A stretch of 46,528 bases of DNA from a virus (taxonomy: Duplodnaviria > Caudoviricetes). Shown here piece after piece: positions 3,001 to 44,800 of the stretch. Where the stretch lies: the IMG/VR virus record IMGVR_UViG_3300038379_000041, positions 1 through 46,528 of that record. One strand, given 5' to 3'. The notes beneath the pieces were generated by a model. That model was not told the DNA's origin, did no database searches, and was given only the letters and a program-made list of their open reading frames with translations. Position 1 is the first letter of the stretch; every line of letters starts with the position of its first letter. A program made the translations under genes and the position numbers.

Positions 3001-5441
3001 CGCTGTTCAACGAGGCGCGGCGCGTACTCGAGGACGTCGAACGGCGCGTTCGGGCGGCGCAAGCCTTGAATCAACCGGCGTCGCGCCGGCGGCTCGGCCT
3101 CGCGGGGCAGTCATATCTCGATCAGGTGGATGGCATTCTGGATCGCTACAGTTTTGCGCGCGTCAGCGATGCGGCGCTCGAACGTCGCGAGGCGCTGGCT
3201 GACTGGATCGGGCAGCAGGAGGCCGAGGGGCAATTTGTCGATCTGCCGCCCGTGCTGTTGGCCGAGCAGCGTCGGACGCCGTACCGCGATCTGTCGGTCG
3301 AGGAACTGATCGGCGTCACGGATGGCCTACAACAGATCGCTCGGCTCGCCCGACTCAAGAACCGCCTGCTGACCGCAGCGAAGTCGCGCGAGCTGGCCCA
3401 GGTCGTGAGCGACCTGGCGAAATCGATCCGGGAGCACTTCAAAGGTCGCCGGCGTGACACCTCGATCGAGACGCGGCTGCCGGAGAATAACGCGCGCCGC
3501 GCACTGAGCGGGTTCTTTGCCAGTCATCGGAAGATGGCGAGCCTGGCACGCGAGATGGACGGCTTTCAGGAGGGCGGGCCAATGTGGGACGCCGTGATCC
3601 GGCGCCTGAACGTCGCCGGCGATCGCGAAGCCGAAATGAACGCCATCGCCATCACGGCGCTCGACGGCCTGATCAAGCAGACATTCCCAGGTCGTGCCGC
3701 CGCGGATCTCTACACGCGGAGCACGGTCGCGGGTCGCCCGCTGACGAAGATGGCCCGAATCATGGTGGCGCTTAATTGGGGCAACGAGGGTAACCGGCAG
3801 CGGATCCGAGACGGCTACGACTGGACAGATGCCCAGGTGCAGCAGGTGCTCGACTCGCTCGACTCCCGCGATTGGACGTTCGTCAATGGCGTGTTCGCGT
3901 TGATTAACAGCTACTGGTCTGATATCGAGGCAAAGCAGCGGCGAGTCACGGGCTTGGCGCCGGAGAAGGTCGAGGCCGCGCCCATCACGGCCGCACACGG
4001 CTCGTCTCCGGGCGGCTACTTCCCACTGAAGTACGACGATCGCCAGTCGGCGCGCGCCGCGGGATACGTCGAACTTGAGACGAGCAAGCTGCAAGGGCTC
4101 GCCGCATACACGCACGCCACGACGAAACGCGGACACACCAAGGCCCGTCAGGCGCGAGTAAAGGAACCCGTGCGGCTAGACTTCGGCGTGATCACCGAAC
4201 ATCTGCAACAGGTCATCCACGACCTGAGCCATCACGAAGCCCTGATCGACGTCGGCAAGGTGCTCGGCGCGCGCGAGGTGCAGAACGCGATCTATGAGAC
4301 GTATGGCGATATCGTCTACCGGCAATTCAAGGACGGTGTAAAGGATGTCGCCTTCGGTACCATGCCGGCGACGAATTGGTGGGAAGCGTCGCTGAACCAT
4401 GTCCGCGCCGGCGCGACGATCGCGGGGCTCGGCTGGAATCTTACAACATCATTCCTGCAACCGCTTGGACTCACACAGTCGATTGTGCGGATCGGGCCGT
4501 GGGCCGTGGGCCGTGGGCTGTATCGGTGGCTGCGATCGCCGAGGGCGTTCATCGAGACGCCGACGTGGATCAACGAGCAATCGACATTCATGCGAACACG
4601 GAGCCGTACACAGCAGCGAGAGATTAACGAGATCCGCAACCAAGTCGGCCTGAACACCGGCCGCGTGCAGGGGTGGGTTGACGAGGTGCTTCGCACGACC
4701 ACGCTGGATCGGGTGAACTACGTGGACGTGGCGGATTCGTATTTTTGGCTCATCCAGCAGATGCAACGAGTCGCCGACGTGCCGACGTGGCTCGGCGCCT
4801 ACGAGGCGGCCATGACGCGCGGCGAGGACGAGTCGCGCGCGGTGGCGCTGGCAGATCAAGCCGTCATCGACGCGCAGGGCTCAGGGCAGATCAAGGATCT
4901 CGCGGCCGTGCAACGCGGCGGGCCGGCGCTTCGTGTGTGGACGACGTTCTATAGTTTCTTCTCGACGACGTACAACCAAGCGGCCGAGACGCGGCGCAGC
5001 GGGAAGTCGGTCGGCCGCAAGGCCGCGGACTATCTGATGCTCTGGACGGTGCCGGCCACGCTCGGGTATCTGATGCGTGAGGCGCTTCGGCCTGGGGACG
5101 ACGATGAGCAAGATCTCGTCGTCCGCTTGCTCCGCGAAAACCTCGCGTACATGAGCGGTATGCTGCTCGGGTTCCGCGAATTGACCGGCGCGATCCAAGG
5201 GTACAGCGGCTACGAAGGGCCGGCGGGCGCTCGAGGCTTCGCGAACGCCGGCCGACTGGTGAAGCAAGTGCAACAAGGTGAGGCCGACGCGGCATTCTGG
5301 CGCGCGCTGAACGACACGGCTGGCGTGCTACTTCACTACCCGGCCGGCCAAGTGCGCCGGACGATCGAGGGTGCTGCGGCGCTGATCGAGGGAAAGACGG
5401 CGAACCCTTTGGCGCTCGTCACCGGCGCGCCCCAGGAGTAA
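1..5441 (+). CDS. Giant internal virion / DNA-ejection polyvalent protein, C-terminal part (5'-truncated), with a zincin-like metallopeptidase motif
   Basis: Frame is open from position 3 ([14 protein letters not shown]...), so the 102 start is an artefact; [12 protein letters not shown] (HExxH, 1746-1760) followed by [19 protein letters not shown]; long helical C-terminal region typical of podovirus gp16-like proteins. Confidence 0.85.
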
Positions 5442-9196: not shown

Positions 9197-9375
9197 GACG
9201 CGATCACATCACCACGTTGATCAACGCGGCCGTCGTCGGCGTGTTTTGGCTGATCGCGCGAGTTGGCGGTAAAAAGGAGAACAGACATGGATCCGAATCT
9301 ACTTCGTCCGATCGTATCGTCCCTGATCCGGTACGCGCTGGTCACACTCGGAGTGACCGAAGCAGCCGGCGGTGA
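9193..9375 (+). CDS. Possible small membrane peptide
   Basis: ATGA overlap with the upstream stop; LINAAVVGVFWLIA hydrophobic; overlaps the next gene by 89 nt. Confidence 0.3.
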   Translation: MRRDHITTLINAAVVGVFWLIARVGGKKENRHGSESTSSDRIVPDPVRAGHTRSDRSSRR

Positions 9376-9472
9376 CGGCGTCGAGCAGCTCGCCGGCGCC
9401 CTGTTGACGATGGGGTTGGTCGGGTACTCGATCGTAAAAGGCGTCCGGCAGGCCAAGACGGAGCGGGAGTGA
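9287..9472 (+). CDS. Putative holin (two hydrophobic helices, basic C-tail)
   Basis: AAGGAG RBS; IVSSLIRYALVTLG and LAGALLTMGLVGYSIV segments; lysis context. Confidence 0.65.
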   Translation: MDPNLLRPIVSSLIRYALVTLGVTEAAGGDGVEQLAGALLTMGLVGYSIVKGVRQAKTERE

Positions 9473-19951: not shown

Positions 19952-21019
19952 GTGGCGAAGCGGGCATTGAGCAAACCGGCGAAGAAAGAGATCCCGTTCC
20001 GCCCGATCGAGATGTTCGGGCGCTTCCGCCTGACGGCGACGGGGCTCGAGGTGACAGGCCGACCCACGCTCGCCGAATACCAAGCGGTCGGTGAGTTCAT
20101 CAGCAAGGTGCAAAAGGGCGCCGGCTGGTGGCTCGCCGACTGGCTCGCCTACGGCGAAACACGCGACGACTGGAAAGAGAAGCTCAGCCAGGTCGTCGAT
20201 GCCGGGCTCGTGAGAGAGCGGACGGCGCGAAACCATAAATACATTGGGGAAAATGTGCCACCATCCCGACGTCGGGAAGATGTTGATTTTTCCCTACATG
20301 CCGAGGTCGCGTCGCTGTCCCCGAAGGAGCAAACCGAGTGGCTCGCCCGCGCCGCCGACCACGATTGGTCGGTGCGGGATCTCCGCGCAGAGATTCGGGC
20401 CGCAGCACGACCAAGGACGATTACCGGCCAGGCCGCGCTCGAGGGCATGTATCGCGTCATCTACGCCGATCCCCCGTGGCTCTATCGGGACAGTGGCGCG
20501 ACGGCTGATGGGTCGCTCGGCAAGGCCGAACGGCACTACGCCGGCATGACGATCGAGCAACTGAGCGCCCTGCCCGTGCAGGCTCATGCGATGCCTGACT
20601 CGATCCTGTTCCTGTGGGTCACGGCCCCGGTGCTGCTCGCGAACCCAGGCCCGCGCGACGTGCTCGAGGCATGGGGGTTTACGTACAAGACCAATTTCAC
20701 CTGGGACAAGGTGCTTGGCATGCGCGGGCACTATTCGCACGTCACCCATGAGCACCTGGTCGTGGCCGTGCGCGGATCGTGTCTGCCGGATCGGCCGACG
20801 CCCCAGCCGAAGAGTTCGCAGACGATCCGCCGCTCCGGGGAACACTCCGAGAAGCCAGAGGATTTCCGGCGCATGATCATGGCGCATTGGGATGGCCCAT
20901 ACCTCGAGCTGTTCGGCCGCAAGCGTGTCGAGGGCTGGACGGTCTTCGGCAACGATGCGAGACTATGGGCGAAGGGTGGCGGCGGCGCCGACATCAAAGA
21001 CGAGGAGATCCCGTTTTGA
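19952..21019 (+). CDS. MT-A70-family N6-adenine methyltransferase fused to an LmbU-like DNA-binding domain
   Basis: YRVIYADPPW, LFLWVT, WGFTYK, HSEKPE, YLELFGR; N-terminal WWLADWLAYG...SRRR...FSLHAEVASL..EQTEWL..A...WSVRDLR. Confidence 0.85.
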   Translation: MAKRALSKPAKKEIPFRPIEMFGRFRLTATGLEVTGRPTLAEYQAVGEFISKVQKGAGWWLADWLAYGETRDDWKEKLSQVVDAGLVRERTARNHKYIGENVPPSRRREDVDFSLHAEVASLSPKEQTEWLARAADHDWSVRDLRAEIRAAARPRTITGQAALEGMYRVIYADPPWLYRDSGATADGSLGKAERHYAGMTIEQLSALPVQAHAMPDSILFLWVTAPVLLANPGPRDVLEAWGFTYKTNFTWDKVLGMRGHYSHVTHEHLVVAVRGSCLPDRPTPQPKSSQTIRRSGEHSEKPEDFRRMIMAHWDGPYLELFGRKRVEGWTVFGNDARLWAKGGGGADIKDEEIPF

Positions 21020-22448: not shown

Positions 22449-22484
22449 TCTAGGGTCGCCTGGGCAGTGTCCGGCGGTGACACC

Positions 22485-23222
22485 GTGATCCATTATCACG
22501 GCCTCCCTATCACGCCGGCCACTGCGGCCGAAGTTGCCGTCAGAGCCGGGCATGCCTTCGTCTCGTTTGCTTATCCTGGTCAGATGGGATTGGCTGTTGC
22601 TGCCTGCCAGTCCTTCGCGCTGGACAACGGCGCTTTCTCGGCGTGGCGCAAGGGTCAGCCCATTACCGATTGGGAGCCGTATTATGCCTTCGCTGAGGCC
22701 GGGAAGCGGCAACCGGCCTGCGACTTTGCCGTCATTCCAGACGTGATTGACGGCACCGAAAGCGACAACGATGATCTCGTGGCCGACTGGCCCCTGCCGC
22801 ATTGGTTCGGTGCTCCCGTCTGGCATCTGCACGAGTCGTTTGAGCGGCTTGAGCGGCTGGCGGAGCGGTTTCCGCGTGTTTGCCTCGGCAGCTCGGGAGC
22901 CTACGCCCAGATCGGCACCGAACAATGGTGGCGACGGATGCACCAAGCCATGCGGACTATTTGCGACGATGCTGGGCACCCCCGTTGCCGCTTGCACGGA
23001 TTGCGGATGCTTAACCCCGCGGTGTTCTCGCGGTTTCCGTTTGCGTCTGCCGACAGCACAAACATCGGCCAAAACATCGGCATCGATTTGGCGTGGCGTG
23101 GCACCTACGCCCCGCCGACCAAGGAGAGCCGCGTGCAGTTGATGCGTAGCCGTATTGAGTCGATTAATGCGCCAGATCATTACGATTTCCAGAACTTGCC
23201 ACCGGAGTTTGAGTTGCGATGA
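22485..23222 (+). CDS. TGT/DpdA-like (tRNA-guanine transglycosylase fold) protein
   Basis: FALDNGAFS, IPDVIDG, PVWH, VCLGSSG, LHGLRM, SADST motifs; start 22485 (or 22467). Confidence 0.7.
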   Translation: MIHYHGLPITPATAAEVAVRAGHAFVSFAYPGQMGLAVAACQSFALDNGAFSAWRKGQPITDWEPYYAFAEAGKRQPACDFAVIPDVIDGTESDNDDLVADWPLPHWFGAPVWHLHESFERLERLAERFPRVCLGSSGAYAQIGTEQWWRRMHQAMRTICDDAGHPRCRLHGLRMLNPAVFSRFPFASADSTNIGQNIGIDLAWRGTYAPPTKESRVQLMRSRIESINAPDHYDFQNLPPEFELR

Positions 23223-25498: not shown

Positions 25499-25806
25499 TG
25501 GGTCTATTCACCGGACTCGCGATCGGCGGGGCGCTCGCAGGCGGATTGTTCGCCGGCAAGAAGCTCGGCCAGCGCAACGCGCAGGCGCAACAGGCGCAAT
25601 CACAGATCCCGCCGACGCCAGGCTCGCAACTGACCGCGCCCGCGCCGCCAACCATCAACCCAGGCGATCAGATGGCTCAAGCTAACCGCGCCGGCGAACG
25701 GCAGCGTAAGCGCGCGGCATCCAGCACGCTCGTCGGCCAGGCTCCCAAGAGCGACAAGACGCCGGCGTCACCGACACTCAGGCCGAAGACGCTGATCGGG
25801 TACTGA
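25498..25806 (+). CDS. Small pre-portal virion protein
   Basis: TGATG coupling on both sides; Gly-rich hydrophobic N-terminus and KTLIG C-terminus, as in podovirus pre-portal genes. Confidence 0.65.
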   Translation: MGLFTGLAIGGALAGGLFAGKKLGQRNAQAQQAQSQIPPTPGSQLTAPAPPTINPGDQMAQANRAGERQRKRAASSTLVGQAPKSDKTPASPTLRPKTLIGY

Positions 25807-27539
25807 TGGCGAACATCTACGAGGGCGCGCCCGTCACCCGCCGCGATCGACTCGAGAAGGTGCGCGGGGCGCTCAAGACCCGTCGCGCATCCTTTGATGG
25901 GCAATGGCGCGACGTGGCTGATTTCATCGCGCCGCGGCGCATTCGCATGCACGCCACGGACGTCAACCGTGGCGACCGACGCGATCAGAAAATCATCGAC
26001 TCGACCGGCAAGATGGCCGAGCGGACGCTCAAGTCGGGGTTACACGCCGGCCTGACGTCGCCGGCGCGGCCGTGGATGAAGCTGACGACACCGGATCCCG
26101 ACTTGGCGCAATCGCCGGCGGTGAAGGAGTGGCTGCATGTCGTCACGAGCCGCATGCTGACGGTCTTCGCGCAGACCAATCTCTACAACGTCCTGCCTAT
26201 TCTCTACGGCGACTTCGGCACGTTCGGCACGGCGGCGATGGCCGTGCTCGAGGATGAGCGCGATCTGTTTCGGTGCTACCCGTACCCAATCGGCAGCTAT
26301 TGTCTGGCGGTCAACAAGCGCGGACTGATTGACACATGGGTGTACGAGTTCCGGTTGACGGTTGATCAACTTGTCCGCGAGTACGCCGTCGTCGAAGGGA
26401 CGCGACGCATCGACTGGTCGCGCATCAGCACACACGCCAAATCGTTATGGGATCGTGGCGACTATTACGAGTTGATCGATGTGTGTTGGGTAGTGATGCC
26501 GAACGAGTTGCACGACGCCAACCGGATCGAGTCAAAATATCTCCCGTTCACGAGTTGCCATTTCGAGGTCGGGGAGAATCGGGACGGACGGTTTCTGCGC
26601 GAGAGCGGGTTCCGCACATTCCCTGTGCTGGCACCGCGTTGGGACGTCACGGCGCTGACCGACACGTACGGCGTCGATTGCTGCGGCATGACGGCGCTCG
26701 GCGACGTGCGGCAACTGCAAACAATGGAGCGACGCAAGGGGCAGGCGATTGCGAAGATGGTCGATCCGCCGCTTGTGGGGCCGTCATCGCTGCGGACGCA
26801 GAAGACGTCCCTCTTGCCGGGCGATATCACGTACCAAGACGTGCGCGAGGGCATGCAAGGGCTCCGAGCGATTCACGAGGTCGGGGTGAATCTCAGCCAC
26901 CTGACGACAGACATGGCCGAGGTGCGGTACCGGATCCAGCGCGCGTACTATGAGGATCTGTTCCTGATGCTCGCGACGATGGATCAGAACCCGGCCCGCG
27001 GCGCGGATGCGCCCACCGCTCGAGAGATTCAGGAGCGGCACGAGGAGAAGCTGCTGGCGCTCGGCCCGACACTCGAGCGCACTAATGACGAGCTGCTCGA
27101 TCCGCTCGTCGATCGTGTGTATGAGATGATGGAGCGCAATGGGCTCATCCCCGAGGCGCCGCCAGAACTGGACAACGTTAAACTGAAAGTCGAATACATC
27201 TCGATTCTCGCCCAGGCGCAAAAACTGGTCGGCGTGGTCGGCCAGGATCGGCTCGTGCAAACCGTGCTCGGTATGGCCGAGCTGATGCCGGAGGCGGTAG
27301 ATAAGATTGACCTAGATCGTTTGATCGATAACTACGGCGACATGCTCGGCGTGGATCCGCGGGTGGTGCGGTCAAACGAGGAAGCCAACGCGAGGCGCCA
27401 GCAGCGGGCACAGCAACAGCAGGCGGCGCTCGATGCCGACAACGCGCAGAAGCTCGCGCAGGCCGGTAAAGCGGCCAGCGAGACGTCGCTCGACGGCGAC
27501 TCAGCACTCACACGGGCGCTTACGGGAGCCGTGGCGTAG
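25806..27539 (+). CDS. Portal (head-to-tail connector) protein
   Basis: GLTSPARPW, FGTAAM, PRW...YG, TAREIQERHEEKLLALGP, VEYISILAQAQK; T7/BPP-1-type portal. Confidence 0.93.
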   Translation: MANIYEGAPVTRRDRLEKVRGALKTRRASFDGQWRDVADFIAPRRIRMHATDVNRGDRRDQKIIDSTGKMAERTLKSGLHAGLTSPARPWMKLTTPDPDLAQSPAVKEWLHVVTSRMLTVFAQTNLYNVLPILYGDFGTFGTAAMAVLEDERDLFRCYPYPIGSYCLAVNKRGLIDTWVYEFRLTVDQLVREYAVVEGTRRIDWSRISTHAKSLWDRGDYYELIDVCWVVMPNELHDANRIESKYLPFTSCHFEVGENRDGRFLRESGFRTFPVLAPRWDVTALTDTYGVDCCGMTALGDVRQLQTMERRKGQAIAKMVDPPLVGPSSLRTQKTSLLPGDITYQDVREGMQGLRAIHEVGVNLSHLTTDMAEVRYRIQRAYYEDLFLMLATMDQNPARGADAPTAREIQERHEEKLLALGPTLERTNDELLDPLVDRVYEMMERNGLIPEAPPELDNVKLKVEYISILAQAQKLVGVVGQDRLVQTVLGMAELMPEAVDKIDLDRLIDNYGDMLGVDPRVVRSNEEANARRQQRAQQQQAALDADNAQKLAQAGKAASETSLDGDSALTRALTGAVA

Positions 27540-27568: not shown

Positions 27569-27898
27569 ATGACGAGGTACTTGGTGCTCGCGCTGGCTGT
27601 CGTGCTGAGCGCAGCCGTCGCCGAGGCGGCATTTCGAGCCGGGCGGATCACCGTGACCACGACAGCCACGGCGCTCTACACCGCGCCGGCGCGGGGCGGG
27701 TCAGTGTTGCTGTGTAACCGGCACACGGCTAGCGTCTACATCGGCGGCGACGGCACGCTGACGACGGCCAACGGATTCGAGATCGCGGCCGGTGATTGCA
27801 CGACACAGCGGCCGTTTCCCAATGAGTCCATCTGGTTCATCGTCGGCGCAGCGACGGCTCGCGTCGATTTCGCCGAGGGCCAGTACCGGGAGCCATAG
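27569..27898 (+). CDS. Small beta-sandwich structural-type protein with a signal-peptide-like leader
   Basis: MTRYLVLALAVVLSAAVAEA-A leader; TVTTTATAL...NRHTASVYIGG...NGFEIAAG body. Confidence 0.7.
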   Translation: MTRYLVLALAVVLSAAVAEAAFRAGRITVTTTATALYTAPARGGSVLLCNRHTASVYIGGDGTLTTANGFEIAAGDCTTQRPFPNESIWFIVGAATARVDFAEGQYREP

Positions 27899-27900
27899 TC

Positions 27901-29364
27901 ATGCGCCAATTACTGATCGTCGCGATCGCGACGCTATTCACAGCGGCACCTGTATCTGGCCAGGGCAACGTCGGTGCCCAAGGTTACTATCGCGTGCCAC
28001 CCCTAAGCTCGAGCGGCGTGTTGTCGGCGCCGATCTACGGCCCACAGTCCTGCACGACGCCGGCTTTCGCCTTCGTCGCGGCCACCACGAGCGGCGTCGG
28101 CTACACGCCGAGCAAGGTGTGCATCGTCATTGGCGGCACCGAAGTGCTCGGCGTGTCGGCCTCAGCGGTGACGAGCACGGTGCCGGTGGTGGTGCCTGAC
28201 GGCAGTGCAGGGGCCCCAAGCATCAGACGCAGCGCAAGTCAGACAGGCTTTTTCTTTGAAGACCAGTTCTCGGTGCTATTTGGTGAGAACGGCATCCCTG
28301 ATATTCGATTGGGTCGTACGGGTGACGCAGGCTACTTGGGGTTCTATTTCAACTCGTCCATTGCTACATATTTGATCAGTGACGCCGCGAACGTCATCGC
28401 GCAGCGGAATGGGACGAATGCGCAGACCTTCAATGTCTATCAAACCTATACCAGTGCAACCGATTTTTACCGGACGAGTCTCTATTCAAATTATGCCAGT
28501 GCGTCGGGTGGACTGATTCTAGAAAAAGGCGCGGCCACGGCTGACGCCGCACTGCCCTTATACATTCGCAACGCAACAAACGGCAGCATTGACTTTGGCA
28601 CAAATTCGGCTTCTCGTTGGCAGATCGGTGCGTCAGGTCACTTCCTTGCGAACGGTGCCTACAACATCGGTGACGGCGCGGGGAATAGCCCGGTCAACAT
28701 CTACACCGAAGGGCAAATCATTACACCTGATCATACCTATGGTTCGGATAGCACACCGCAGTACGCTGTTAACGGAGACGCGACCACGGGATTTCGCTAT
28801 CGTGGCGGTGGGGAGATCGCCTATGTGTCTGGGTCAACACTCTACTGGCGAATGCGGGGCGCACGACTGATTGCCTCCGACGCAGCAACCCTTGAATGGG
28901 GTGAAAGCCAACGCTCGATCATCAGCAGTCCTGCTGACGGGCAGTTTAATTGGACAAACGCGGCGGCAAGTGCGGGCGTGCTGTTCACTTTTTCCTCTGA
29001 TGGCAAGTACACGATTGGCACTCGCAGCGGCGGTACGGCGGCAACCCAACTCGGCTCATCGCAAAGCACCGATCCGACCTGCACGAGTAATTGCGGGACG
29101 AGTCCCACGGTCATAGGCTCTGACTCCGAGTTCCGCGTGACAATGGGGAGCAGCGGTTCGCCCGCGTCCGGGTGGGTCATCACATACAACGGGACGTGGG
29201 ATGTGGCGCCTGTGTGCTCGGTGACGATGGGCCTAGCGGGCATGGCGGTAGGGAAGATGGCGATTGTTGTGGCCACGACGACCACCACGATGACAGTCAC
29301 GACAAACGGCACCGCGCCAAGTAATTCCGACGTATATCACGTTTTGTGTAGAGCACCACGGTAA
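27901..29364 (+). CDS. Tail-fibre-like protein with a signal-peptide-like leader
   Basis: MRQLLIVAIATLFTAAPVSG-Q leader; three copies of a (D)GS..AP..F...TG fibre-type motif; G/S/T-rich. Confidence 0.7.
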   Translation: MRQLLIVAIATLFTAAPVSGQGNVGAQGYYRVPPLSSSGVLSAPIYGPQSCTTPAFAFVAATTSGVGYTPSKVCIVIGGTEVLGVSASAVTSTVPVVVPDGSAGAPSIRRSASQTGFFFEDQFSVLFGENGIPDIRLGRTGDAGYLGFYFNSSIATYLISDAANVIAQRNGTNAQTFNVYQTYTSATDFYRTSLYSNYASASGGLILEKGAATADAALPLYIRNATNGSIDFGTNSASRWQIGASGHFLANGAYNIGDGAGNSPVNIYTEGQIITPDHTYGSDSTPQYAVNGDATTGFRYRGGGEIAYVSGSTLYWRMRGARLIASDAATLEWGESQRSIISSPADGQFNWTNAAASAGVLFTFSSDGKYTIGTRSGGTAATQLGSSQSTDPTCTSNCGTSPTVIGSDSEFRVTMGSSGSPASGWVITYNGTWDVAPVCSVTMGLAGMAVGKMAIVVATTTTTMTVTTNGTAPSNSDVYHVLCRAPR

Positions 29365-29379: not shown

Positions 29380-29781
29380 ATGCGCGTCTTCGTCTTCGTC
29401 TTCGTCTTCGCCTTGTCGCTCGGAGCCCAAGAGAAGGGCTCGTACGTCACGCCACAGGCCCGTGCTGCGATCACGGACATAGAGATCACCGAGGTTCGCA
29501 TCGGTCGGATCCCATGGATGCTGGCGATCCACTATCGCGACAGCGCGGGTACCACCATGATCGACTATCACCGCGGCGTCTTCATCGAGCCCATCGCCGA
29601 CGATCCCGGCACACCGAACGTGAATGAGGCCAACCCCGGCAACCCGCGCGGCGCGGATGTGCTCGTGAAAGCCTTAAACAAGGCCAATCTCAGCACGAAG
29701 TCGCTCGAGTGTCGGGCGGTGGAGCACCTGGTCAGCGAGGGATTGATTCCGGCGGCGAGTTGTAGCGGCGCGCCGCAATAA
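29380..29781 (+). CDS. Fibre-associated protein with a signal-peptide-like leader
   Basis: MRVFVFVFVFALSLGA-Q leader; follows the fibre-like gene. Confidence 0.65.
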   Translation: MRVFVFVFVFALSLGAQEKGSYVTPQARAAITDIEITEVRIGRIPWMLAIHYRDSAGTTMIDYHRGVFIEPIADDPGTPNVNEANPGNPRGADVLVKALNKANLSTKSLECRAVEHLVSEGLIPAASCSGAPQ

Positions 29782-29805: not shown

Positions 29806-30159
29806 GTGAACACCGCGGATCCAAAACAAGTCGGCGCTCGCGCACGGCGCGCAAAGGACGCCGCGCGCCGAAGACACGACGACACGAAGGCCGTGTTATC
29901 GACGCCGGCCGGGAGGCGCCTGATCTGGTATTTGCTCGAGCGCGCCGGCGTGTTTGAGTCGGTAATGGGGCCGGACGGAGTGATCCAGTATCAGGCTGGA
30001 CGACAGGACTTCGGTCATGAGATCATGGCGCTGGTCGAAGCCTCGGATCCAGAGGCCATATTCGCGCTGATGCGCGAGGCCAGGGACGAGCGGATCAAAG
30101 AGCAGCGAACACAACAGGCCGAACAGACGCCGGCCGTAAAGGACGAGGGTGAGGAGTGA
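29806..30159 (+). CDS. Bbp19-like head-module protein
   Basis: DDTKAVLSTPAGRRLIWYLLERAGVF...AGRQDFG pattern; precedes the scaffold. Confidence 0.75.
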   Translation: MNTADPKQVGARARRAKDAARRRHDDTKAVLSTPAGRRLIWYLLERAGVFESVMGPDGVIQYQAGRQDFGHEIMALVEASDPEAIFALMREARDERIKEQRTQQAEQTPAVKDEGEE

Positions 30160-30815
30160 TGTTCGGCACACCAAGGCACGGGCGCATCGCGCCAGTACTA
30201 TTCGAGGGTGAGGGCGGCGGGCCGGCGGCAGGCGATCAAAAAGCCGGCCAAGAGGACAAGGGCGGGGCGGACGGGAAGCCGGCTGATGCCGGCGGCAAGG
30301 GCGGCTCAGACGCGAAGGGCGGTGCCAAAGACGGCGACGGGAAGCCCGTGGCCGGCGCACCGGAGAAGTATGAGTTGACCGTGCCGGAAGGCCAGGAGTA
30401 TCTCGAGGCGGATGACTTGCAGGCGATCGAGGTGATCGCCCGCGGCAAAGGCTGGACGAACGAACAGGCCCAGGCCGCGGTCAACGAACACGTCGAGGCC
30501 GTCGAGTCGCGCAAAGCGAGGTTCTTGGAGGAGTCGAAACAGGATCCCGTCTACGGCGGCGACAAGCTCGATCAGACGGTGCTGCTCGCGAATAAGGCGC
30601 TCGATCGGTTGCATCCGAAGGGCGATCTCGAAGGCGATCGGTTCCGCAAGTTGCTGTCGCGGTCGGGATACGGCAACAACATCGCCGTGCTCGCTCACCT
30701 GGCGAAGCTCGGCAAAATGATGGGCGAAGACGGCGGACTACCCGGTAGTGGTCACAGCGGCGACAAGAAGACGGCCGAAGAGATCATGTACGGCGGCACG
30801 ACGTCGAAAACCTGA
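30159..30815 (+). CDS. Capsid scaffolding protein
   Basis: Low-complexity G/D/K N-terminus, APEKYEL, GYGNN, KLGKMMGED, EEIMYG C-terminus; directly before the capsid gene. Confidence 0.8.
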   Translation: MFGTPRHGRIAPVLFEGEGGGPAAGDQKAGQEDKGGADGKPADAGGKGGSDAKGGAKDGDGKPVAGAPEKYELTVPEGQEYLEADDLQAIEVIARGKGWTNEQAQAAVNEHVEAVESRKARFLEESKQDPVYGGDKLDQTVLLANKALDRLHPKGDLEGDRFRKLLSRSGYGNNIAVLAHLAKLGKMMGEDGGLPGSGHSGDKKTAEEIMYGGTTSKT

Positions 30816-30829
30816 TCGGAGACAGTTCC

Positions 30830-31996
30830 ATGAAGACCCTTCGCGTATTGACAGGGTTCCTGATGTGCACACTCGTCGCGGCCGCGTTCACGGTGGACGC
30901 GCACGCGGTCAGCGCATCAGCGGGCCTCTTCGACGCGCCGGCCAGCACGGCGATCGATGTGCTCTACTACATCGGCCTGGGCTCCGGCGTCGCCGTGTTC
31001 GGCGCGACGCTGAGCACGAACGCGCTCACCCTACAGGATTGGGCCAAGCGGCTCGAACCCGATGGCAAAATCGCGGTGATCGTCGAGCTGCTCGAGCAGA
31101 CCAACGAGGTGCTGCTTGATATGCTCTGGAAAGAGGGCAATCTGCCCACCGGCCACCGGACGACGGTGCGAACCGGACTCCCGACTGTCGCCTGGCGCCT
31201 GCTGAATCAGGGCGTCACGCCGAGTAAGAGCACCACGGCGCAGATTGACGAGCAGGCGGGTATGCTCGAGGCGTGGAGCGAGGTGGACGTCGATCTCGCC
31301 AAGCTGAACGGGAACGTCTCGGCGTTCCGGTTGAGCGAGGCGAAGGCGTTCATCGAGGCCATGAACCAGGAGATGGCGAGCACGCTGTTCTACGGCAACG
31401 GCGGGCTGGCACCGGAGGAGTTCACGGGCCTGGCGCCGCGGTACTCGAGCACGTCGGCGGGCAACGGCGACCACGTCATCCTGGGCGGGGGCGGGGGTGC
31501 CGACAACACGAGCATCTGGCTCGTGCAGTGGGGCGAGGAAACCATCACCGGGATCTTCCCCAAAGGCAGCAAGGCCGGTTTGCAGCATGACGATTACGGC
31601 GAGGTGACGGTTGAGGTCACGGCCGGCGTCGCCGGGCAGCGGATGCGCGCCTACCAGGAGCGATACCAGTGGAAGGCCGGGCTGGCCGTCAAGGACTGGC
31701 GCCACGCGGTTCGCATCGCGAACATCGACGTCAGCGATCTGTCTGGTGGCAGCGCCGCCGATCTGATCGATCTGATGGAGCGCGCGGAGGAGACGCTCCC
31801 GAACAAGATGGGACGCCGTGCGTTCTACTGCAATCGCACGATCCGGCGCTACCTGCGGAAGCAGGTGCGTACCGACGTCTCGACCGGCGGCGGGCTGACG
31901 TACGACAACTACATGGGCAAGCCGGCGCTGATGTTCGGCGACACCCCCGTTCGGCGCTGCGATGCGCTGCTCAATACAGAGGCCGTCGTCGCCTAG
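30830..31996 (+). CDS. Major capsid protein (Bbp17/epsilon15 gp7-like) with a 58-aa hydrophobic N-terminal extension
   Basis: TLQDWAKR, QTNEVLLD, EGNLPTGH, FYGN...PEEFTGLAPRY, DWRHAVRIANID, DALLNTEA; GGAG RBS before 30830. Confidence 0.93.
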   Translation: MKTLRVLTGFLMCTLVAAAFTVDAHAVSASAGLFDAPASTAIDVLYYIGLGSGVAVFGATLSTNALTLQDWAKRLEPDGKIAVIVELLEQTNEVLLDMLWKEGNLPTGHRTTVRTGLPTVAWRLLNQGVTPSKSTTAQIDEQAGMLEAWSEVDVDLAKLNGNVSAFRLSEAKAFIEAMNQEMASTLFYGNGGLAPEEFTGLAPRYSSTSAGNGDHVILGGGGGADNTSIWLVQWGEETITGIFPKGSKAGLQHDDYGEVTVEVTAGVAGQRMRAYQERYQWKAGLAVKDWRHAVRIANIDVSDLSGGSAADLIDLMERAEETLPNKMGRRAFYCNRTIRRYLRKQVRTDVSTGGGLTYDNYMGKPALMFGDTPVRRCDALLNTEAVVA

Positions 31997-32022: not shown

Positions 32023-32466
32023 ATGTTTCTGGATGCTCTCGGAGTGGTGTCCGACGCGCAGGCGGTAGTCGCCGACGCGCCGAGCACCAACACGATCGAT
32101 CTCGGCAACGTCACACCAAAGCGCGAAGTCGGCACGGGCGAGCCCATCGGGTTCGGGTTCTCGGTGGACGTCGCGGCGGACATCGCCAATGCGGACGAGA
32201 CGTATGAATTTCAGGTGATCCAGTCGGCCAACGCCGATCTGTCGTCACCCGACATTCTCGCGGCGCGCTCGATCGCCGGCGCCACGCTGGTGGCGGGCTA
32301 CCAGTTCTTCATGGAGGTGCCGGTTGGCACTCCCACGAAGCGGTACCTCGGCGTGTACTTCAACGTCGGCGGCACGACGCCGTCGATCACGGTCACGGCC
32401 TGGCTCACGCTGCGGTCGCTGTTCTCGATCTTGGCGAAGTCGTACGCCAAGAATTACAGCGTGTGA
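32023..32466 (+). CDS. Bbp16-like capsid cement protein
   Basis: AAGGAGG RBS; MFLDAL..SDAQA...STNTIDLG, RYLGVYFNVGGT, TAWLT; true start 32023. Confidence 0.8.
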   Translation: MFLDALGVVSDAQAVVADAPSTNTIDLGNVTPKREVGTGEPIGFGFSVDVAADIANADETYEFQVIQSANADLSSPDILAARSIAGATLVAGYQFFMEVPVGTPTKRYLGVYFNVGGTTPSITVTAWLTLRSLFSILAKSYAKNYSV

Positions 32467-32929: not shown

Positions 32930-35900
32930 ATGGCGACAGCGACCAAGTACCTCGAGTACACGATCAACCTCACGAACAAAGCGCAAACCGAGACGCTACA
33001 GGCGGCATATCCGGGCGGGATCAATATCGCGCCGGATGCCGCCGCATTGGCGTACTTGGCGCCCATTCAGAACGTTGGCGACGATTTCTCCGCGCCGTGC
33101 TGTCGATCGCCGTGGTTCATTCTGAACTCAAACTACCCGCGCAACGTCGCCACGTTTACCAAGAAGGTCGGCGGGTGGTTTGGTTTGTCGTTTCTGTTTG
33201 GCACGACCTACACATATAAGTGGGTCGGGCAGTTCGCGTACGTCGCCAGCGAGACACCGGAGATCAACGGCACGCCAACGGAAGTCGTAACGATCGCGCA
33301 GCGAAAGTTTCTCGTCGCATTCTCCGCGTTCTACGACGGGGACATCGACAACATCGGCGCGGACGCGCAAGGGGTGTGTCGCGAGGCGTCGCGACACGTC
33401 GATGGTTTCGGGTGGGTGTATTGCGCCGACGCCAGCGGACGCTTCGTGACGGCGAGCACGACGCAACTCGGGGCCGCGGCCAACAACAAGACGTGGGAGA
33501 GGGTGTATCTCAAGCCCGTCGCGATGCCCACGGCATCACAGCGGTTCTGGCGGGCGTTCATTTCCGGCGCGGCGCAACGCGGATGCTCCTTAAGTCTCAC
33601 GCCGGACGGCCGCATCGCCGTCAATAACATCAGCGACGCGGGCACGGAGACATTACAGGCGACTTCGACCGACATCCTCGCGCTGAACACATGGTATCGG
33701 CTCGACGTGTTGATCGAGGCCAAGACCCCTGGCGGCAACATTCGCGTGTACGTCAACCGGAAACTCTGGATGACGGTCACAATGCCGGCAGGCACGGGGC
33801 TGTCGAACACCGGCAATCACACCTCGAGCGTGCTCGGTTCGTCGGCGGTGCCTGGCACCGACGAGGTCGAGATTCATTTCTGTGATTGGGTCGGCGCCGA
33901 GTGGCCCACTGCGGACGGGAGCGGCGACTACACCGGGATCGATTGGCTCAACGGCAGCAAGATCGCACGCATCGACGTCGCTGCGGCACACGCGGACAAC
34001 GAATGGAGTGGCGACTATCGCTACGTGAACGCGCTCAACGTGAGCGAGGTGGATTCTGCGGCCACGATGAACACCACGACGAGCGCAGGCATCTTGGCGC
34101 TGTCGATGAATGACGTCAAGATCGAGGATCAGCACGGCGCCTTGGGAGCCGTCGCGTTTACGGCGTGCTGGAACGTCAACCAATTGACGTCGATCGCGGG
34201 CACGCCGGCCTTGTTCGGGTGGGATATCGCCGGCGCCGGCGCCGACCTGACGGCCATCGCACTGGTCGCCAACACACAAATGTGGGTGCGGCGCCTGTAT
34301 CGGCCATCCGGGTTAACCGAGCCGTTCACCATCACACCGTTGCAGTTGCGTCATGTGAAGTACGGCAACACGAGTGAGGCCAGGTGCTACGGCGTGACGG
34401 CGCTGGTCGAACTGGTCGGCACGTTTGGGGAAGAGGACGTGCCGGACGACACGGCTGAGACTGCGTCGCCCACGACGGCGCCGCCCCGGCGTGGGATTCA
34501 CGTCGCGCCGTATCCCGAGACAATTTGGGCGCGCTCGAGACTGGCACCCGTCTCGCCCGTGATCGTGCATTCTGGCACCTACGTCGGCAACGCGACAGTG
34601 ACGGAGTTGCAGTTCCGCGCGCCGGTCACTTGGCTGGTTATCAAGCGCGTGGACGCCACACAGCACGGCTCATTCTGGTGGTCATCGCTGGTCGGTCAGC
34701 ACACCTCTGGCGAGCGGGAGATCGCGCCGCGAATCCACGCGCTGATCGATGCGAGCCTGATTGTCACTGGCGCGGAGGATGCCCAGGAGCAACGCACGAT
34801 CGTGCGGATCACTGGCAACGCCGGCAACGTCAACGCTTCCGGCGTGACCTATAACTACATCGCCTTTCAAGATCCGGGCGCGCGCTTCTCGCTCAATGGT
34901 GCGTTCCTGCACTCGAGCACGGCGTTTGCGAGTTTCGTCAACACGCTCCGCAACGCGAATTTCAATCCAGACGGCATCTTTTTTCACATCGAACGCATCG
35001 GGGCGAGCGACACCTCGTTTAGTCACTACTTCAAGGGGCCGGGGCACTCGGCGAACGCGGGCTCACCACTGAACGCGGCGGAGTCGGTAACGATTGCGTC
35101 GAAGGCGGCGGGCGCGCTGACGTCGCTGGTCACGCTCCACACGAGCGGCGTCGATCCGGTCGGCTATGCGTGTTTCCGCATGGACGACAACAGTTCCGAT
35201 CCAAACAAGCACAAGGTGCTTAAGATCGTGACGTGGACTGGCGACGGTGCTGCCTCGAGAACGATCAGCCTGCCCAACAGCTCGGGACTACGACCGCTCT
35301 ATGCCATCGTCTCGCCGGAGAACGCCGCGGCGTATCACCGATGCCCCGGCGACACCGGATCGAACAGCCATAGCATGAGTTCGGGTACCGTGAGTACCAC
35401 GGCGATTACGTCGGGCGGCATCGATCAAATCACGGTCGGCTCAACACTCAACGCCAACGGCGTTGATTACAACGCCTTTATTATCTTGGGAAGCGCGACC
35501 GCCGGCAACAATGGATGGTCGATCGATGGCGAGTTCGCATACGTCGAGCCTGACGCGCCCGAGGGCGACTACGACGATCCCGACGATGCGATCGATCCGA
35601 TTGATCCCGATCCCGAGGATCCCGATCCTGATCCGGGGCCGGGCGATGGCGACGACTGCGATGCCGGCGACGTCTGCGTCGAGGCCACAACGCGGATGGT
35701 CAACCTGGCGCTGCTCAAGATCGGCGTACAGCATTTCCTGAGTAACTACTGCACGGAAACGGTAAAAGAGGCCCAGGTCGCGCGCAAGGTGTTCGAGGTC
35801 GCCGTGCGGTATACGCTCCGCATGTTCCCCTGGCCCTTCGCCACGAAATACGCGGCGCTGTCGTTGGCCGTGACGCAACCCAACAACGAAGACTGGACGT

Positions 35901-37018
35901 ACAGCTATCGGTTACCGAGCGATTGCATCTACGCGCGCCGGATTGTGGTCGCGCGCAACAAGGCCGTCGATCCCAAAGGCCCCCCGTTTATGCAATCGGC
36001 CGACTCATCAGGAGGGCTTCTGTTCGCGAATCAGGCGAACGCCGTGCTCGAGTATACGTGTCGGCCGACGTGCGTGAGCTACGTCGCGGACGCGCTCTTT
36101 ACGGAGGCATTCGCCTGGAAGCTGGGCGCCGAAATGGCGCCCGGTCTGTCGCGCATGACCGAGGTAGTGACGCACTGTCTCGATCAGTTCAAGTTGGCAA
36201 TCGAGAAGGCCGAGAGCGACATCAAGCCCGGCGTGCCTGGCAAGGTGCCGGCGACCGATCCCGCGGATCTCGACACGACGGCCGCGCAGATCGCGGCCAA
36301 CCTGGGCGTCATCAACCGGGCGCTACTCCGCATCGGCGCACGCACCATCGCTAACTACACCACTGATCAGTCGCGCGAGGCCATCGCCGTGAGGCTGGTG
36401 TTCGAGGATGAGTTGCAGGCCACACTGCGAGATTTCCCCTGGGCGTTCGCGACGAAGTATGTTGAGCCGGCGCTGGTCGGCGGCACGGCCACGGATCCCG
36501 TCAATCTGGATTGGCAATACAGTTATCGTGCGCCCTCGGATTGCGTGATGGTACGGAGACTCGTGACAGCCCGAGGCCGGAGCTACGAGCGCAACCCGGA
36601 TCCGTTCCGCATGGCCGAGGACGCCACTGGCGGGCTGATCTTCGCCATGACCGATGAGGTGACGATCGAGTACACCGCTCGGGAGGCCGGCACGGTGGCA
36701 AAGGCTGACGCGAAGTTCCGCGACGCCTTTGCGTGGCGCATCGCTGCGGCGACGGCGGCGTCGCTGGCTCAGGTGGATCCTGACTACCCGGATCAGCACG
36801 GCCGCGGGCCGGAGATGCCACAGGACGCGCGCCAACGCCACGCCAGGAAGGACATTAAGGCGTCGCAGCGGTTGATGGTGGCACGATGGGCCTGGGCCAA
36901 GTATCAGGAGGCGCTCTCGAGCGCGGCGACGACAGACGCGAACGAAAAACAGGAGGAGAAGCCGGGCGACGCCGATTGGATCCTCGACCGCGGCATCGGC
37001 GAGGACGAGTCACTGTGA
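32930..37018 (+). CDS. Fusion protein: ~900-aa beta-rich domain, Asp/Pro linker, then two tandem tail adaptor (T7 gp11-like, tail tubular A) domains
   Basis: Two copies of N.AL..IG...EA......LR.FPW.FATKY...DW.YSYR.PSDC...RR...EYT.R...D..F..AFAW; directly before the nozzle gene. Confidence 0.85.
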   Translation: MATATKYLEYTINLTNKAQTETLQAAYPGGINIAPDAAALAYLAPIQNVGDDFSAPCCRSPWFILNSNYPRNVATFTKKVGGWFGLSFLFGTTYTYKWVGQFAYVASETPEINGTPTEVVTIAQRKFLVAFSAFYDGDIDNIGADAQGVCREASRHVDGFGWVYCADASGRFVTASTTQLGAAANNKTWERVYLKPVAMPTASQRFWRAFISGAAQRGCSLSLTPDGRIAVNNISDAGTETLQATSTDILALNTWYRLDVLIEAKTPGGNIRVYVNRKLWMTVTMPAGTGLSNTGNHTSSVLGSSAVPGTDEVEIHFCDWVGAEWPTADGSGDYTGIDWLNGSKIARIDVAAAHADNEWSGDYRYVNALNVSEVDSAATMNTTTSAGILALSMNDVKIEDQHGALGAVAFTACWNVNQLTSIAGTPALFGWDIAGAGADLTAIALVANTQMWVRRLYRPSGLTEPFTITPLQLRHVKYGNTSEARCYGVTALVELVGTFGEEDVPDDTAETASPTTAPPRRGIHVAPYPETIWARSRLAPVSPVIVHSGTYVGNATVTELQFRAPVTWLVIKRVDATQHGSFWWSSLVGQHTSGEREIAPRIHALIDASLIVTGAEDAQEQRTIVRITGNAGNVNASGVTYNYIAFQDPGARFSLNGAFLHSSTAFASFVNTLRNANFNPDGIFFHIERIGASDTSFSHYFKGPGHSANAGSPLNAAESVTIASKAAGALTSLVTLHTSGVDPVGYACFRMDDNSSDPNKHKVLKIVTWTGDGAASRTISLPNSSGLRPLYAIVSPENAAAYHRCPGDTGSNSHSMSSGTVSTTAITSGGIDQITVGSTLNANGVDYNAFIILGSATAGNNGWSIDGEFAYVEPDAPEGDYDDPDDAIDPIDPDPEDPDPDPGPGDGDDCDAGDVCVEATTRMVNLALLKIGVQHFLSNYCTETVKEAQVARKVFEVAVRYTLRMFPWPFATKYAALSLAVTQPNNEDWTYSYRLPSDCIYARRIVVARNKAVDPKGPPFMQSADSSGGLLFANQANAVLEYTCRPTCVSYVADALFTEAFAWKLGAEMAPGLSRMTEVVTHCLDQFKLAIEKAESDIKPGVPGKVPATDPADLDTTAAQIAANLGVINRALLRIGARTIANYTTDQSREAIAVRLVFEDELQATLRDFPWAFATKYVEPALVGGTATDPVNLDWQYSYRAPSDCVMVRRLVTARGRSYERNPDPFRMAEDATGGLIFAMTDEVTIEYTAREAGTVAKADAKFRDAFAWRIAAATAASLAQVDPDYPDQHGRGPEMPQDARQRHARKDIKASQRLMVARWAWAKYQEALSSAATTDANEKQEEKPGDADWILDRGIGEDESL

Positions 37019-41837: not shown

Positions 41838-44800
41838 ATGAGCGACTACGACGAGCTGCTCCGCGAAGACGAACAGGATCAGCCGAGCCCGCAACGATCG
41901 GTCTATGACGATCTGATCCAACAGGACGCGCAGGCGGACGAGGGTCGGTTGCGCGGGTCGATGAAGGTCGCGCTCGAAACGACACCCGATCGCGCGGCCG
42001 ACGTGCGCCGACTGTCCGCGCGGTTTGGACTCCCCGAGACGGTTGTCGATCGACAGTACGACAGCATCCGCACCAGGGCCGTGAGCGACGATGCCCTGCA
42101 AGCGACACAGGACACGCCGGCCGTCGCGACATGGCTCCGCGAGCCGCGCAATGCCGCGGTCGCATCGGACGACTTGCCGGCCTTGACGACGCTCGAGCAT
42201 GTCGTAGGGTTCGGGCTCGACGCGACGCGAGCACTGATGGCCGGCGGCTACCGCGGCGCGACAACGGGTTTGTGGGGGTTGATCCAAGGCGCGGCCGAAG
42301 CGGTCGGAGCCGAGTCGGCGGCGGTATACGCCGCACGCGTCCGCAAGGCGAGCGAAGCCACAACGGCAGCGGTACGTGGACAGCAACAGCCGCGAGGTTT
42401 TGTTGCTGGCGCCGCCCTGAGTGGCGTCGAGTCGGTCGGGGCCAACATCACCGGGCTGATGGCAAGCCTAGCGACGGGCTCGCCGGCGCCGATGCTCACA
42501 ATCATGGGCGCCCAGGTGGGCGGCGAAGCCTACGGCCAGGCGCGGGATCGAGGTGTCACACCGCGGCAAGCCGCCGTCTTTGCAGTCGGGCAAGGGGGGG
42601 TCGAGGTTGCGACCGAGATGATCCCGGCGTCACGGCTGATTAAAGATCTCGCCGGGAATCAGCAATTCATCAAGATGCTCACGGGTCAGCTCGCGGCGGA
42701 GATTCCAGGCGAGCAGGTCGCGACGCTGTTACAGGACTTGAACGAGTGGGCCGTGCAGTATCCAGCACGGCCGTTTGGGGACTACCTGGCCGAGCGCCCG
42801 AGCGCGATGGCCGAAACCCTCATCGCTACCGTGGTCGCCACGGCGACGCAGGCCAGCGTGGGGCGCGCCACCGAGCGGCTCATGCGTCACGTCGGAGAGG
42901 TCGCCACGGAGTCAAAGACGGCCAAGCGGTCGCCGGAAGCGACGCAGGCGCTCGTCGCTAGTATCGTTGCGGACAGCCCCATCGAGACGGCGCACTTCGA
43001 TACGCCGACATGGGTGAGCTACTGGCAGAGCCAAGGCGTCGATCCGGCGCAGAAGGCCGCAGAACTGACGGGCTCACTCGAGAGTCTACCCAACGCGATC
43101 GCGGCTGGTACGCCCTTGGCGGTGCCAATGGCGGCATATATCGCCCAGGTCGCGCCAACCGAGCACCACGGCGCCCTAAGCCAAGAACTGCGGATCGGGC
43201 CTGATGACTGGAACGCCAAAGAAACGGCAGCGTTCCACGAGAAACATTCAGTCGAGACGCCGGCCGATGAGCAGACCGCGGCCATCCAACAGGCATTGGT
43301 GAGTAAGTTGACCGCGGCCGGCATGACGGCCGGCGCGGCTGAGGCAAGCGCGCAGCAGATGGTACAGGTCTTCGCCACGCGGGCGCAGCGGGCGGGCTTA
43401 GATCCTGTGGAGTTGTTTAATCGCTACGGGCTCGAGATTCAGCGACCAGATCTCGTGGCACCAAGGGGTGAGGGTGATGAAACTGGATCTGGCGAAAGTC
43501 GTCTCGCTGATCGAGCAGGGCGCGACCAAAGGTACCGCGTTCCGAGCCGTCTTGAGGGCGCATCGGAGACAGCACGCGCCGAGCAATTCGAGGCGCTCTA
43601 CAGCGCTACGCTCGAGGCCGCGCGCGCGCTCGATCCAGGCGTCGATGCCGAGCGCATCCGCCAAGAGTTGGACGCTCGCGTAGGGCTCTATCTCGACGCG
43701 ACGGTGCTCGCCGCAGAGGATCGCGCGCGTCCGCACGATCTACTTAGGGCGATCGCTGCGGCTGGCGGACTGAGCGCCGAAGCCGAGGACGCCGGCGGAC
43801 TCGCAGGCGAGCTGAAGGCCATGCAGGGCCGGTTTGGCTCGCTGGGCGGCGTGCCGGGCGTGTTCCGGCGCAAGAAGCGGGCGACCACGGGTAATCAGCG
43901 ATCGAGCGGCTACGGCGTTGATGAGATGCTCGAGCGACTCCATCAAGATCACCGATGGCGATGGATCGAGAACACGGACATGCTGCTCGATCAGCTCGAC
44001 GATCTGAGTCGTCGCACCGAGGCCGAGACGGGCGACGTGCGACTACCGGGCACCGAGGAGCGACGGGATCTCGGCGTGAAGCTCGAGACGCGATGGTGGG
44101 ACGCAGACGCTTACGATCCGTCGCTTTTCCAGCGAGCAGCGGATCCAACGGCAACGCCGGAGTTCCGGGCATGGTTTGGCGAGTCCGTCGTGGCAGATGC
44201 GGGCCGGCCGCGTGTGGTGTACCACTCTGGCGACTTTGATCCGGCCGTGGATCCCGTGATTCAGGTTGGACTCCACGGCATGCACTTCGGCACCCGCGCC
44301 GCGGCCGAGGAGCGACCGTATGGCAAAGCGGTAGATGACTTCATCCGCGAAGCCGAGATCGATCAGGACGCCGGGCGGTGGTATTGGAGTAGCCAAGGGC
44401 AGGAGTCGTACGGCACCAATGAAGAGGGATTTGAGACGCGCGCGGAGGCGGTGAAGGATCTGGAAGCGGCCGCAATCGAGTACGCGAACGGCATAATCCA
44501 GGACAGCGATCCACCCGTCATCGTGCCGGTCTACCTCTCGATCCAGAACCCGAAGCGCCTGACCGATCAGGGCGCGCAATGGGACGCCGCCATTGAGCAG
44601 GCGAAAGCCGAGGGCTACGACGGCATCGTCTACCGCAACGAGTACGAGGACAAAGGGCAGGACAGTTACATCATCTTCGCGCCCTGGCAGGCGAAGCACG
44701 CCGAGGCGAACCGCGGCACATACGATCGGCGCGATCCATCGGTGCTGTTTCAGGAAACGCCGAAGCCGCCGGCGACCGAAGATCGGCTTGACACCGGCGA

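Follow-up and report, generated by a model that had tools for sequence, protein, structure and literature searches.

Why should the major capsid protein of an uncultured short-tailed phage begin like a secreted protein? HK97-fold coat proteins are regarded as soluble and cytoplasmic, and the capsid gene examined here opens with 58 codons whose product resembles a signal peptide followed by a second hydrophobic patch. The original prediction was that this capsid is made as a membrane-targeted precursor, implying either prohead assembly tethered to the membrane with proteolytic release, or export.

The capsid gene and its surroundings

The window, meaning the whole stretch of DNA that was analysed, is an entire virus record of 46,528 bases (CheckV completeness 100%; GC 64%). 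Its virion genes form a block of the BPP-1/epsilon15 type, comprising terminase, portal, Bbp19, scaffold, capsid, Bbp16 cement, T7-like adaptor, nozzle and ejection proteins (Table 1). The capsid protein was placed in the GP7/BPP-1 type by its full-length PF20911 match, its match to the BPP-1 structure (PDB 3J4U; E 6.5e-99, positions 60-387) and the gene order scaffold-capsid-Bbp16; a BFVD search confirmed capsid folds and gave nothing further. The Met start directly before the N-arm, which is the norm of this type, is replaced here by the 58-aa leader, and the mature part then begins A59-TLSTNALTLQDWAKR. Residue 2 of 8CJZ pairs with A59, and residue 3 of BPP-1 Bbp17 (3J4U) with T60; residues 1-58 are therefore extra and stand where the relatives have only Met.

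Table 1. Positions of the capsid leader, its parts and the neighbouring head genes (window coordinates unless a locus or protein handle is given)
Feature	Position	Strand	Basis or remark
Portal protein	25806..27539	+	PF12236; start not signal-like
Scaffolding protein	30156..30815	+	phrog_458; start not signal-like; stop codon 30813-30815
GGAGA, Shine-Dalgarno-like, 7 nt upstream of capsid ATG	30818..30822	+	sequence; just past scaffold stop
Major capsid ORF (leader and mature part)	30830-31996	+	Pfam GP7, PF20911 E 1e-131
Leader, 58 aa, in place of usual initiator Met	30830..31003	+	alignment to solved relatives; GC3 0.88, equal to mature part
n-region MKTLR, basic	30830..30844	+	K/R in first 8 residues, 96/99 leaders
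H1, first hydrophobic segment, residues 6-22, predicted membrane helix	30845..30895	+	19-mer KD 1.91
A24-H25-A26, candidate signal peptidase I site	30899..30907	+	AxA-like pattern after H1
Acidic polar linker, residues 27-43, predicted outward-facing	30908..30958	+	charge of region after H1
H2, weaker Gly-rich hydrophobic segment, residues 44-58 (V44-G58)	30959..31003	+	uncharged run across junction
GTG (Val56), rejected alternative start	30995..30997	+	without SD
Gly58, predicted P1 of releasing cut	31001..31003	+	Gly at -1 in 93/99 leaders
Mature GP7/BPP-1-type HK97-fold major capsid protein, 330 aa	31004..31996	+	PF20911, phrog_212, 3J4U
Bbp16 cement protein, without leader in the window	32023..32466	+	PF21190; some relatives leader-bearing
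Leader-bearing Bbp16 cement proteins	L085:9086-9622, L135, L139, L058, P0291, P0302, P0318, P0340, P0371, P0381

On rereading, the position and sequence of the leader were found to be correct as predicted, including the Shine-Dalgarno (SD) motif before its ATG and the lack of one at the Val56 GTG. The claim that no ATG precedes ATLST was not strictly right, since one in-frame Met12 (30863) exists, but this codon lies too far upstream to matter. The double hydrophobicity held, with a small correction. The best 19-residue Kyte-Doolittle (KD) means are 1.91 for H1 and 1.52 for H2, both above 1.31, the highest value in a set of 539 40-residue fragments taken from six soluble virion proteins encoded in the window; H2, however, is moderate and does not by itself score as a firm membrane helix. 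Together with the uncharged N-arm (residues 59-69) it forms an uncharged run of 26 residues. An AlphaFold2 (AF2) model of the precursor placed helices at 2-32 and 42-49 with a pLDDT of about 75 over residues 1-20, and its pLDDT below 50 at 26-41 and 49-62 leaves the hairpin discussed below unsupported by the model. A search of the ESM Atlas with residues 1-75 returned no usable match. The predicted AxA site is present as A-H-A but is probably less important than the Gly58/Ala59 junction.

Several further features of the record were noted. The PHROG label of the scaffold as a protease was rejected, as no Ser, His or Cys is conserved at 75% in 72 homologues and the AF2 model is all-helical (pLDDT 89.5) with no PDB fold match. 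The scaffold N-terminus (30156-30220) has a short basic-hydrophobic piece followed by the Gly-rich stretch PVLFEGEGGG; starts resembling this type occur in some leader-bearing and leaderless loci alike, and might represent a separate processing or targeting motif. Between portal and Bbp19, three ORFs (27569-27898, 27901-29364 and 29380-29781) have classical signal-peptide-like starts and no Pfam or PHROG match. ESM Atlas places the product of the first in a family of small viral proteins (85-102 aa), and the ORF is encountered in 6 leader loci and 0 leaderless loci; the 487-aa product among the three carries six Cys. All three products may leave the cell and join the virion as accessories once lysis has occurred. 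The 1362-aa product of 32930-37018, unusually large for its gene position, has two matches to phrog_394 (tail adaptor, ~190 aa) behind a 900-aa N-terminal region. A queuine tRNA-ribosyltransferase-like gene (22467-23222) and an MT-A70 methyltransferase gene (19952-21019) suggest DNA modification. A very large ejection-type polyvalent protein (ART-PolyVal, PBECR5; 42618-46528 and 1-5441) is apparently split by the record ends, which have neither a common repeat nor an in-frame join.

Distribution, design and translation of the leader

Of the 120 homologues with the best scores, a ranking biased towards leader-bearers, 99 (counting the query) carry a leader of at least 25 residues, namely 91 of 110 sequences anchored by script and 8 of the remaining 10, which were read by eye. 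The leader was also encountered in 34 of 78 usable IMG/VR viral loci and 14 of 78 usable metagenome loci (80 fetched and 2 truncated in each set), in 2 of 19 GTDB loci, and in 5 of 150 cluster representatives lying further away, the lowest of the five at about 49% identity; this last count makes the leader a minority state family-wide. The leader-bearing matches in GTDB bins sit on phage-like contigs of 7.3 kb and 44.5 kb. In the class around genome G002, 2 of 401 genomes had close matches, both leaderless, and in the family around G003, 21 of 232 genomes matched, with the leader in G003 only and 3 of 24 loci unreadable. Among the 60 listed matches to cultured phages (of 103 records), none covers query residues before 37, judged by alignment extent. 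A profile search of longer proteins for the leader outside GP7, which is weak evidence, gave nine matches, all GP7. No free-standing leader homologue was present in the first 124 loci, and no gene family was convincingly linked to the leader in 97 loci, the best candidates being off-frame ORFs or clade markers. In one locus (L230) a typical leader lies upstream of ~8700, one base out of frame with the capsid gene, probably through an assembly error.

We characterized the anatomy of 99 leaders less than 60% identical to one another, drawn from 125. Their length ranges from 31 to 58 aa and their sequence is variable (mean column identity 27%), but the design is fixed: a basic start, a hydrophobic helix, an acidic loop, a weaker second hydrophobic stretch and Gly immediately before the ancestral N-terminus. 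Lys or Arg occurs in the first eight residues in 96/99, the net charge before H1 is positive in 93/99, the H1 19-mer has a KD of at least 1.6 in 98/99, and an AxA-like site follows within 12 aa of H1 in 86/99 (shuffles: mean 59, max 71), so that by hand rules the n-region, h-region and AxA features of a Sec/SPI signal are present at 96/99, 98/99 and 86/99. At the junction, Gly occupies -1 in 93/99 leaders against a background of 8%, the other six leaders lacking it, with V/A at -3, F/L/I/V at -2 in 91/99 and frequent Gly at -6. The uncharged stretch spanning the junction is 22 residues long in the median and at least 18 in 89/99, and the most hydrophobic 19-mer nearby begins at -8/-9 in 55/99; together these values put the Gly/Ala bond about halfway along the predicted second helix. 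The KD of this best 19-mer is at least 1.6 in 48/99 and at least 1.2 in 92/99, to be read against the soluble maximum of 1.31. In 11/99 leaders at most seven uncharged residues precede the junction, and there is a class of short leaders with one hydrophobic stretch. The N-arms of leader-bearers were not more hydrophobic than those of leaderless relatives (p 0.39). As leaders are conserved and hydrophobic in relatives, the alignment check proposed with the original prediction did not refute it.

The charges follow a regular pattern. The region after H1 is net negative in 84/99 leaders and net positive in 0/99, and mature residues 12-17 carry a net charge of about +1. Under the established positive-inside rule, a positive start, negative loop and positive mature flank are the signature of a hairpin with its N-terminus in, its loop out and the capsid domain in. 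The same succession, with the positive flank after the second helix, matches the charge layout of M13 procoat. Tat and lipoprotein signals were rejected (twin-Arg motif in 1/99, lipobox Cys in 0/99). A class III (prepilin) signal, in which a short basic leader ends in K/R-G before a hydrophobic helix, was likewise rejected, given F/L/I/V at -2 in 91/99 and the absence of an A24 peptidase from five genomes.

Translation was examined in 44 unique leader loci, the window included, with the starts of L067, L068, L139 and L194 corrected by hand. An SD precedes the leader ATG in 38/44. If the leader were an annotation artefact, with translation beginning near the junction and the upstream frame open by chance, a start codon would be expected there; the GTG at 30995 is one, and some ATG, GTG or TTG lies within -6 to +3 codons of the junction in 25/44 loci. 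None of these has an SD, however, and 19/44 loci have no such codon. Against the artefact also stand a leader GC3 of coding type (0.82 across leader loci) and a pooled dN/dS, over nine non-overlapping close pairs of which two are near-duplicates of each other, of 0.41 for the leader (Fisher p 5e-10) and 0.14 for the mature part. We conclude that the leader is translated and under purifying selection as read from these comparisons; the artefact is scarcely credible and has largely been refuted already. The start at the GTG, which the original prediction had named as a refuting outcome, is not supported, as an SD-backed start close to the junction occurs in 0/44 loci.

The leader is scattered over the tree of the mature part. 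Among 149 DNA-verified loci we counted 15 changes of leader state, at least 8 of them forced by well-supported branches, and in another tree of 202 rows (one mislabelled) 28 changes; both trees are unrooted, and changes were counted without telling gain from loss. An AU test on 40 rows, picked after the first trees had been seen, rejected a single leader clade (p 1e-65). The leader is optional, since some leaderless proteins share 85% identity with leader-bearing ones. In L028, L030 and P0029 the leader ends FG-M with the ancestral Met retained after Gly, which indicates that a leader was added before an ordinary start.

Similar extensions were found on the cement protein, which is N-extended in 4/40 leader-capsid loci. 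Two of 72 leaderless-capsid loci were flagged for such an extension, both with an SD-backed ATG at the normal position. In L085, capsid and cement have look-alike leaders, and the cement leader ends ILIVG|A, replacing Met. Extensions occur on 17 of 120 cement homologues. Seven of these extensions, counting the query, are hydrophobic and finish with Gly preceded by two residues that are hydrophobic or small; 4 of the 7 keep the old Met after Gly, so that an internal start is possible there (protein data). Three kinds of cement leader were distinguished: doubly hydrophobic and Gly-ending; a classical signal peptide with a short pro-piece; and amphipathic extensions of 23-24 aa, with the junction Gly in 6/120 (P0301, P0323, P0339, P0373, P0391 and P0395). 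The cement protein of L135 has a classical signal peptide, and judged by this it may really be exported, as may the three head-region ORFs of the window. As the fixed Gly would restore the ancestral N-terminus of two unrelated proteins, a cut site is its most plausible interpretation.

Predicted membrane hairpin and its alternatives

On the sequence patterns described, we give a probability of roughly 0.55 to the reading that the leader is an inner-membrane hairpin which keeps the capsid domain cytoplasmic and is released by a host membrane protease after Gly58. The N-terminus would stay inside, H1 would cross the inner membrane, and the acidic loop would lie outside, where trimming at A26 by signal peptidase would be optional. 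H2 and the uncharged N-arm would pass back across the membrane, leaving DWAKR inside and the Gly/Ala bond within or at the edge of a second, unstable helix. A cut after Gly58 would leave two halves too short for anchoring and the capsid subunit so released would begin with the ancestral A-T-L; such subunits would then enter ordinary scaffold-guided assembly. The purpose of the leader is likely staging or timing, with subunits concentrated on the membrane and the hydrophobic N-arm hidden until assembly. A T=7 shell has ~415 subunits, which cannot all stay on a flat membrane, so that release probably comes before or during incorporation. In BPP-1, the capsid N-terminus is external and paired with the cement protein according to PMC3863775, which allows an outer tether but means that the arm must be freed. 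The original prediction thus divides: its best-supported part is a membrane-targeted precursor freed by proteolysis, which we infer from the charges, the Gly and the cement module, whereas a membrane-tethered prohead is conjectural, since a closed T=7 shell cannot hold all its subunits on a flat membrane.

We also examined which protease could make the cut. Rhomboid, M50, A24, S26 and S78 proteases were found in 0/5 complete leader-bearing genomes (the window and four others) with positive controls recovered; the search covered those five families. Across 258 loci a rhomboid profile found no rhomboid-like ORF (both controls found), and neither the window nor G003:C62 contains a multi-TM ORF resembling a protease. 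Absence of the five families from five genomes means that any cut would be host-made. A pairing of such a capsid with a phage-encoded rhomboid was not confirmed: the sole candidate record (MT835518.1) is bacterial DNA, and a viral scan with one rhomboid gave no match. That record (L302), deposited as a bacteriophage, carries bacterial chromosomal genes by eye (flagellin-like, MurG-like, rhomboid).

About half of our confidence in the hairpin goes to a rhomboid-type intramembrane protease as first candidate enzyme, and the rest to a site-2 or other membrane protease. Rhomboids are described as accepting Gly at P1 and preferring unstable N-out/C-in helices (PMC2941825), and rhombosortase as cutting after Gly within a membrane helix with no need of a bulky P4 (PMC11389362). 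The leaders resemble the substrates in these sources (Providencia TatA/AarA; Vibrio GlyGly-CTERM/rhombosortase) in a small P1 (95/99), a Gly-rich unstable helix and a predicted N-out/C-in course. They differ in that a bulky hydrophobic P4 for a cut after Gly, as in TatA-type substrates, stands in only 36/99, and in that the helix is short after the cut, which would release its product into the cytoplasm and not into the periplasm. A simplified TatA-type rule fitted a cut after Gly in 33/99 leaders and a cut one residue later in 60/99. The (-3,-1) rule of signal peptidase is obeyed at the junction in 84/99.

Other fates of the leader were weighed against the same evidence. The leader could be a propeptide whose contacts are limited to a chaperone (SRP, trigger factor) or to the surface of the membrane, with a host protease, soluble or peripheral, cleaving it behind Gly and no stable hairpin being formed. 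This would suit the marginal H2, the short leaders with one hydrophobic stretch and the amphipathic cement extensions with the junction Gly, and the dispensable capsid cleavage of 80alpha (PMC5744158) fits the patchy distribution. We nevertheless hold it unlikely, because H1 is a full-strength membrane helix in 98/99 and a positive start with a never-positive loop has no evident reason absent insertion. It is distinctly unlikely, though a bolder extension of the hairpin, that an HK97-fold shell is built from membrane-anchored subunits, the inner membrane wrapping the prohead until a host intramembrane protease shaves it free, as an enveloped-like intermediate reinvented repeatedly on capsid and cement. 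A leader left uncut or cut late, giving anchored shells wrapped in membrane or virions that keep hydrophobic anchors with Gly58 as a hinge, seems quite improbable: Gly stands exactly where a cut would restore the ancestral N-terminus, whatever the leader length, likewise on cement proteins, the N-arm has to pair with the cement protein, and leaderless relatives are 85% identical. In its favour, no phage protease gene appeared among the families searched, T4 proheads assemble at the membrane via the portal (PMC9958956), and the external BPP-1 N-terminus (PMC3863775) makes an outer anchor geometrically possible.

Export was the other outcome first predicted. The leader would then be a true Sec signal plus a pro-segment, the capsid or part of it would be exported, and signal peptidase would make both cuts, as the canonical n/h/c layout, the AxA excess over shuffles and the (-3,-1) agreement would permit; H2 could be a weak stop-transfer, and the cement protein of L135 points the same way, as do the three head-region ORFs with signal-peptide starts. 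We regard this as very doubtful and the claim as poorly supported, since signal-like starts occur in 0/81 portal and 0/93 scaffold ORFs, and the residue at -1 is strictly Gly, not Ala. DNA packaging also needs cytoplasmic terminase and ATP, and without an internal start an exporting phage would be left with no cytoplasmic capsid protein. Lastly, the released leader itself could be the point: each subunit would supply one small membrane peptide with a role in timing lysis, in blocking superinfection or in shielding the capsid from host sensors. Purifying selection combined with repeated gain or loss, as in host-interaction traits, would agree with this; it is highly improbable in view of the freely diverging leader sequences, the lack of a free-standing homologue in those first 124 loci and the presence of a holin-like gene at 9287-9472 (PF23987 match weak).

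Implications and known systems

If the hairpin with host release is correct, tailed-phage head assembly gains a membrane-insertion and host-protease step, and its dependence on a host enzyme could limit host range. Bacterial intramembrane proteases, for which few natural substrates have been identified (PMC2941825), would gain an abundant viral substrate. The GP7 family suits testing, having leader-bearing and leaderless pairs up to 85% identical, solved structures and cultured relatives that grow on harmless laboratory hosts, such as the leaderless Caulobacter phage Jess A (56% identical). For annotators, a signal-peptide call on such capsid genes does not equal secretion. No report of a membrane leader on a tailed-phage capsid protein was found in the open literature, and the accessible parts of PMC7911831, bioRxiv 10.1101/2020.10.09.334284 and bioRxiv 10.64898/2026.02.16.706137 contain no such leader.

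The capsid family is shared with BPP-1 Bbp17 and epsilon15 gp7 (PF20911; 3J4U, 3J40, 8CJZ), with 52.7% identity to BPP-1, and so are the scaffold-capsid-Bbp16 order, Bbp19, and the T7-like portal and nozzle; their solved chains, however, start at Met beside the Ala59 position and are leaderless. HK97 gp5 has a removable N-terminal pro-region, the delta domain, a charged internal scaffold of ~100 aa that is cut by the phage prohead protease in a system with no separate scaffold. The window protein is similar in carrying an N-terminal pro-region, predicted to be removed, on an HK97-fold capsid. Assignment to the delta system was rejected, as PF04586 (S78) is absent in 5/5 genomes, the scaffold is separate and all-helical, and the leader is hydrophobic. 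Prp-cleaved phage leaders carry an L27-like motif and are cut after Phe; they were rejected as a model because the junction residue is Gly in 93/99, not Phe (motif compared by eye). In 80alpha, host Prp removes an N-terminal extension of the HK97-fold capsid protein, and the same motif is reused on unrelated virion proteins, as reported in PMC5744158. Extension of such a capsid and reuse of one motif are common to both cases, but the 80alpha leader is short, non-membrane and cut by a soluble Firmicute protease. T4 head assembly is tied to the inner membrane with proteolytic release (PMC9958956). There, unlike what is predicted for the window, the tether is the portal (gp20, gp40, YidC system), the protease is phage gp21 and the capsid has no membrane segment.

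The pVIII procoat of f1/M13 has a basic start, an acidic outer loop and a basic inner flank. The f1 coat leader is cut by host peptidase after membrane insertion, according to PMC3185693. The window's protein is likewise a coat protein with a leader, for which insertion and a host cut are predicted, and the charge layout is alike. Unlike it, pVIII keeps a membrane helix in the mature coat and is extruded, whereas the window's protein is predicted to lose both hydrophobic stretches of its leader, the product being an HK97-fold subunit that is soluble. Each element has a precedent, namely the f1 coat leader, 80alpha with Prp and the T4 membrane prohead. By this analogy, the leader system would combine the workings of a procoat-style membrane precursor with maturation by a host protease, without belonging to either kind.
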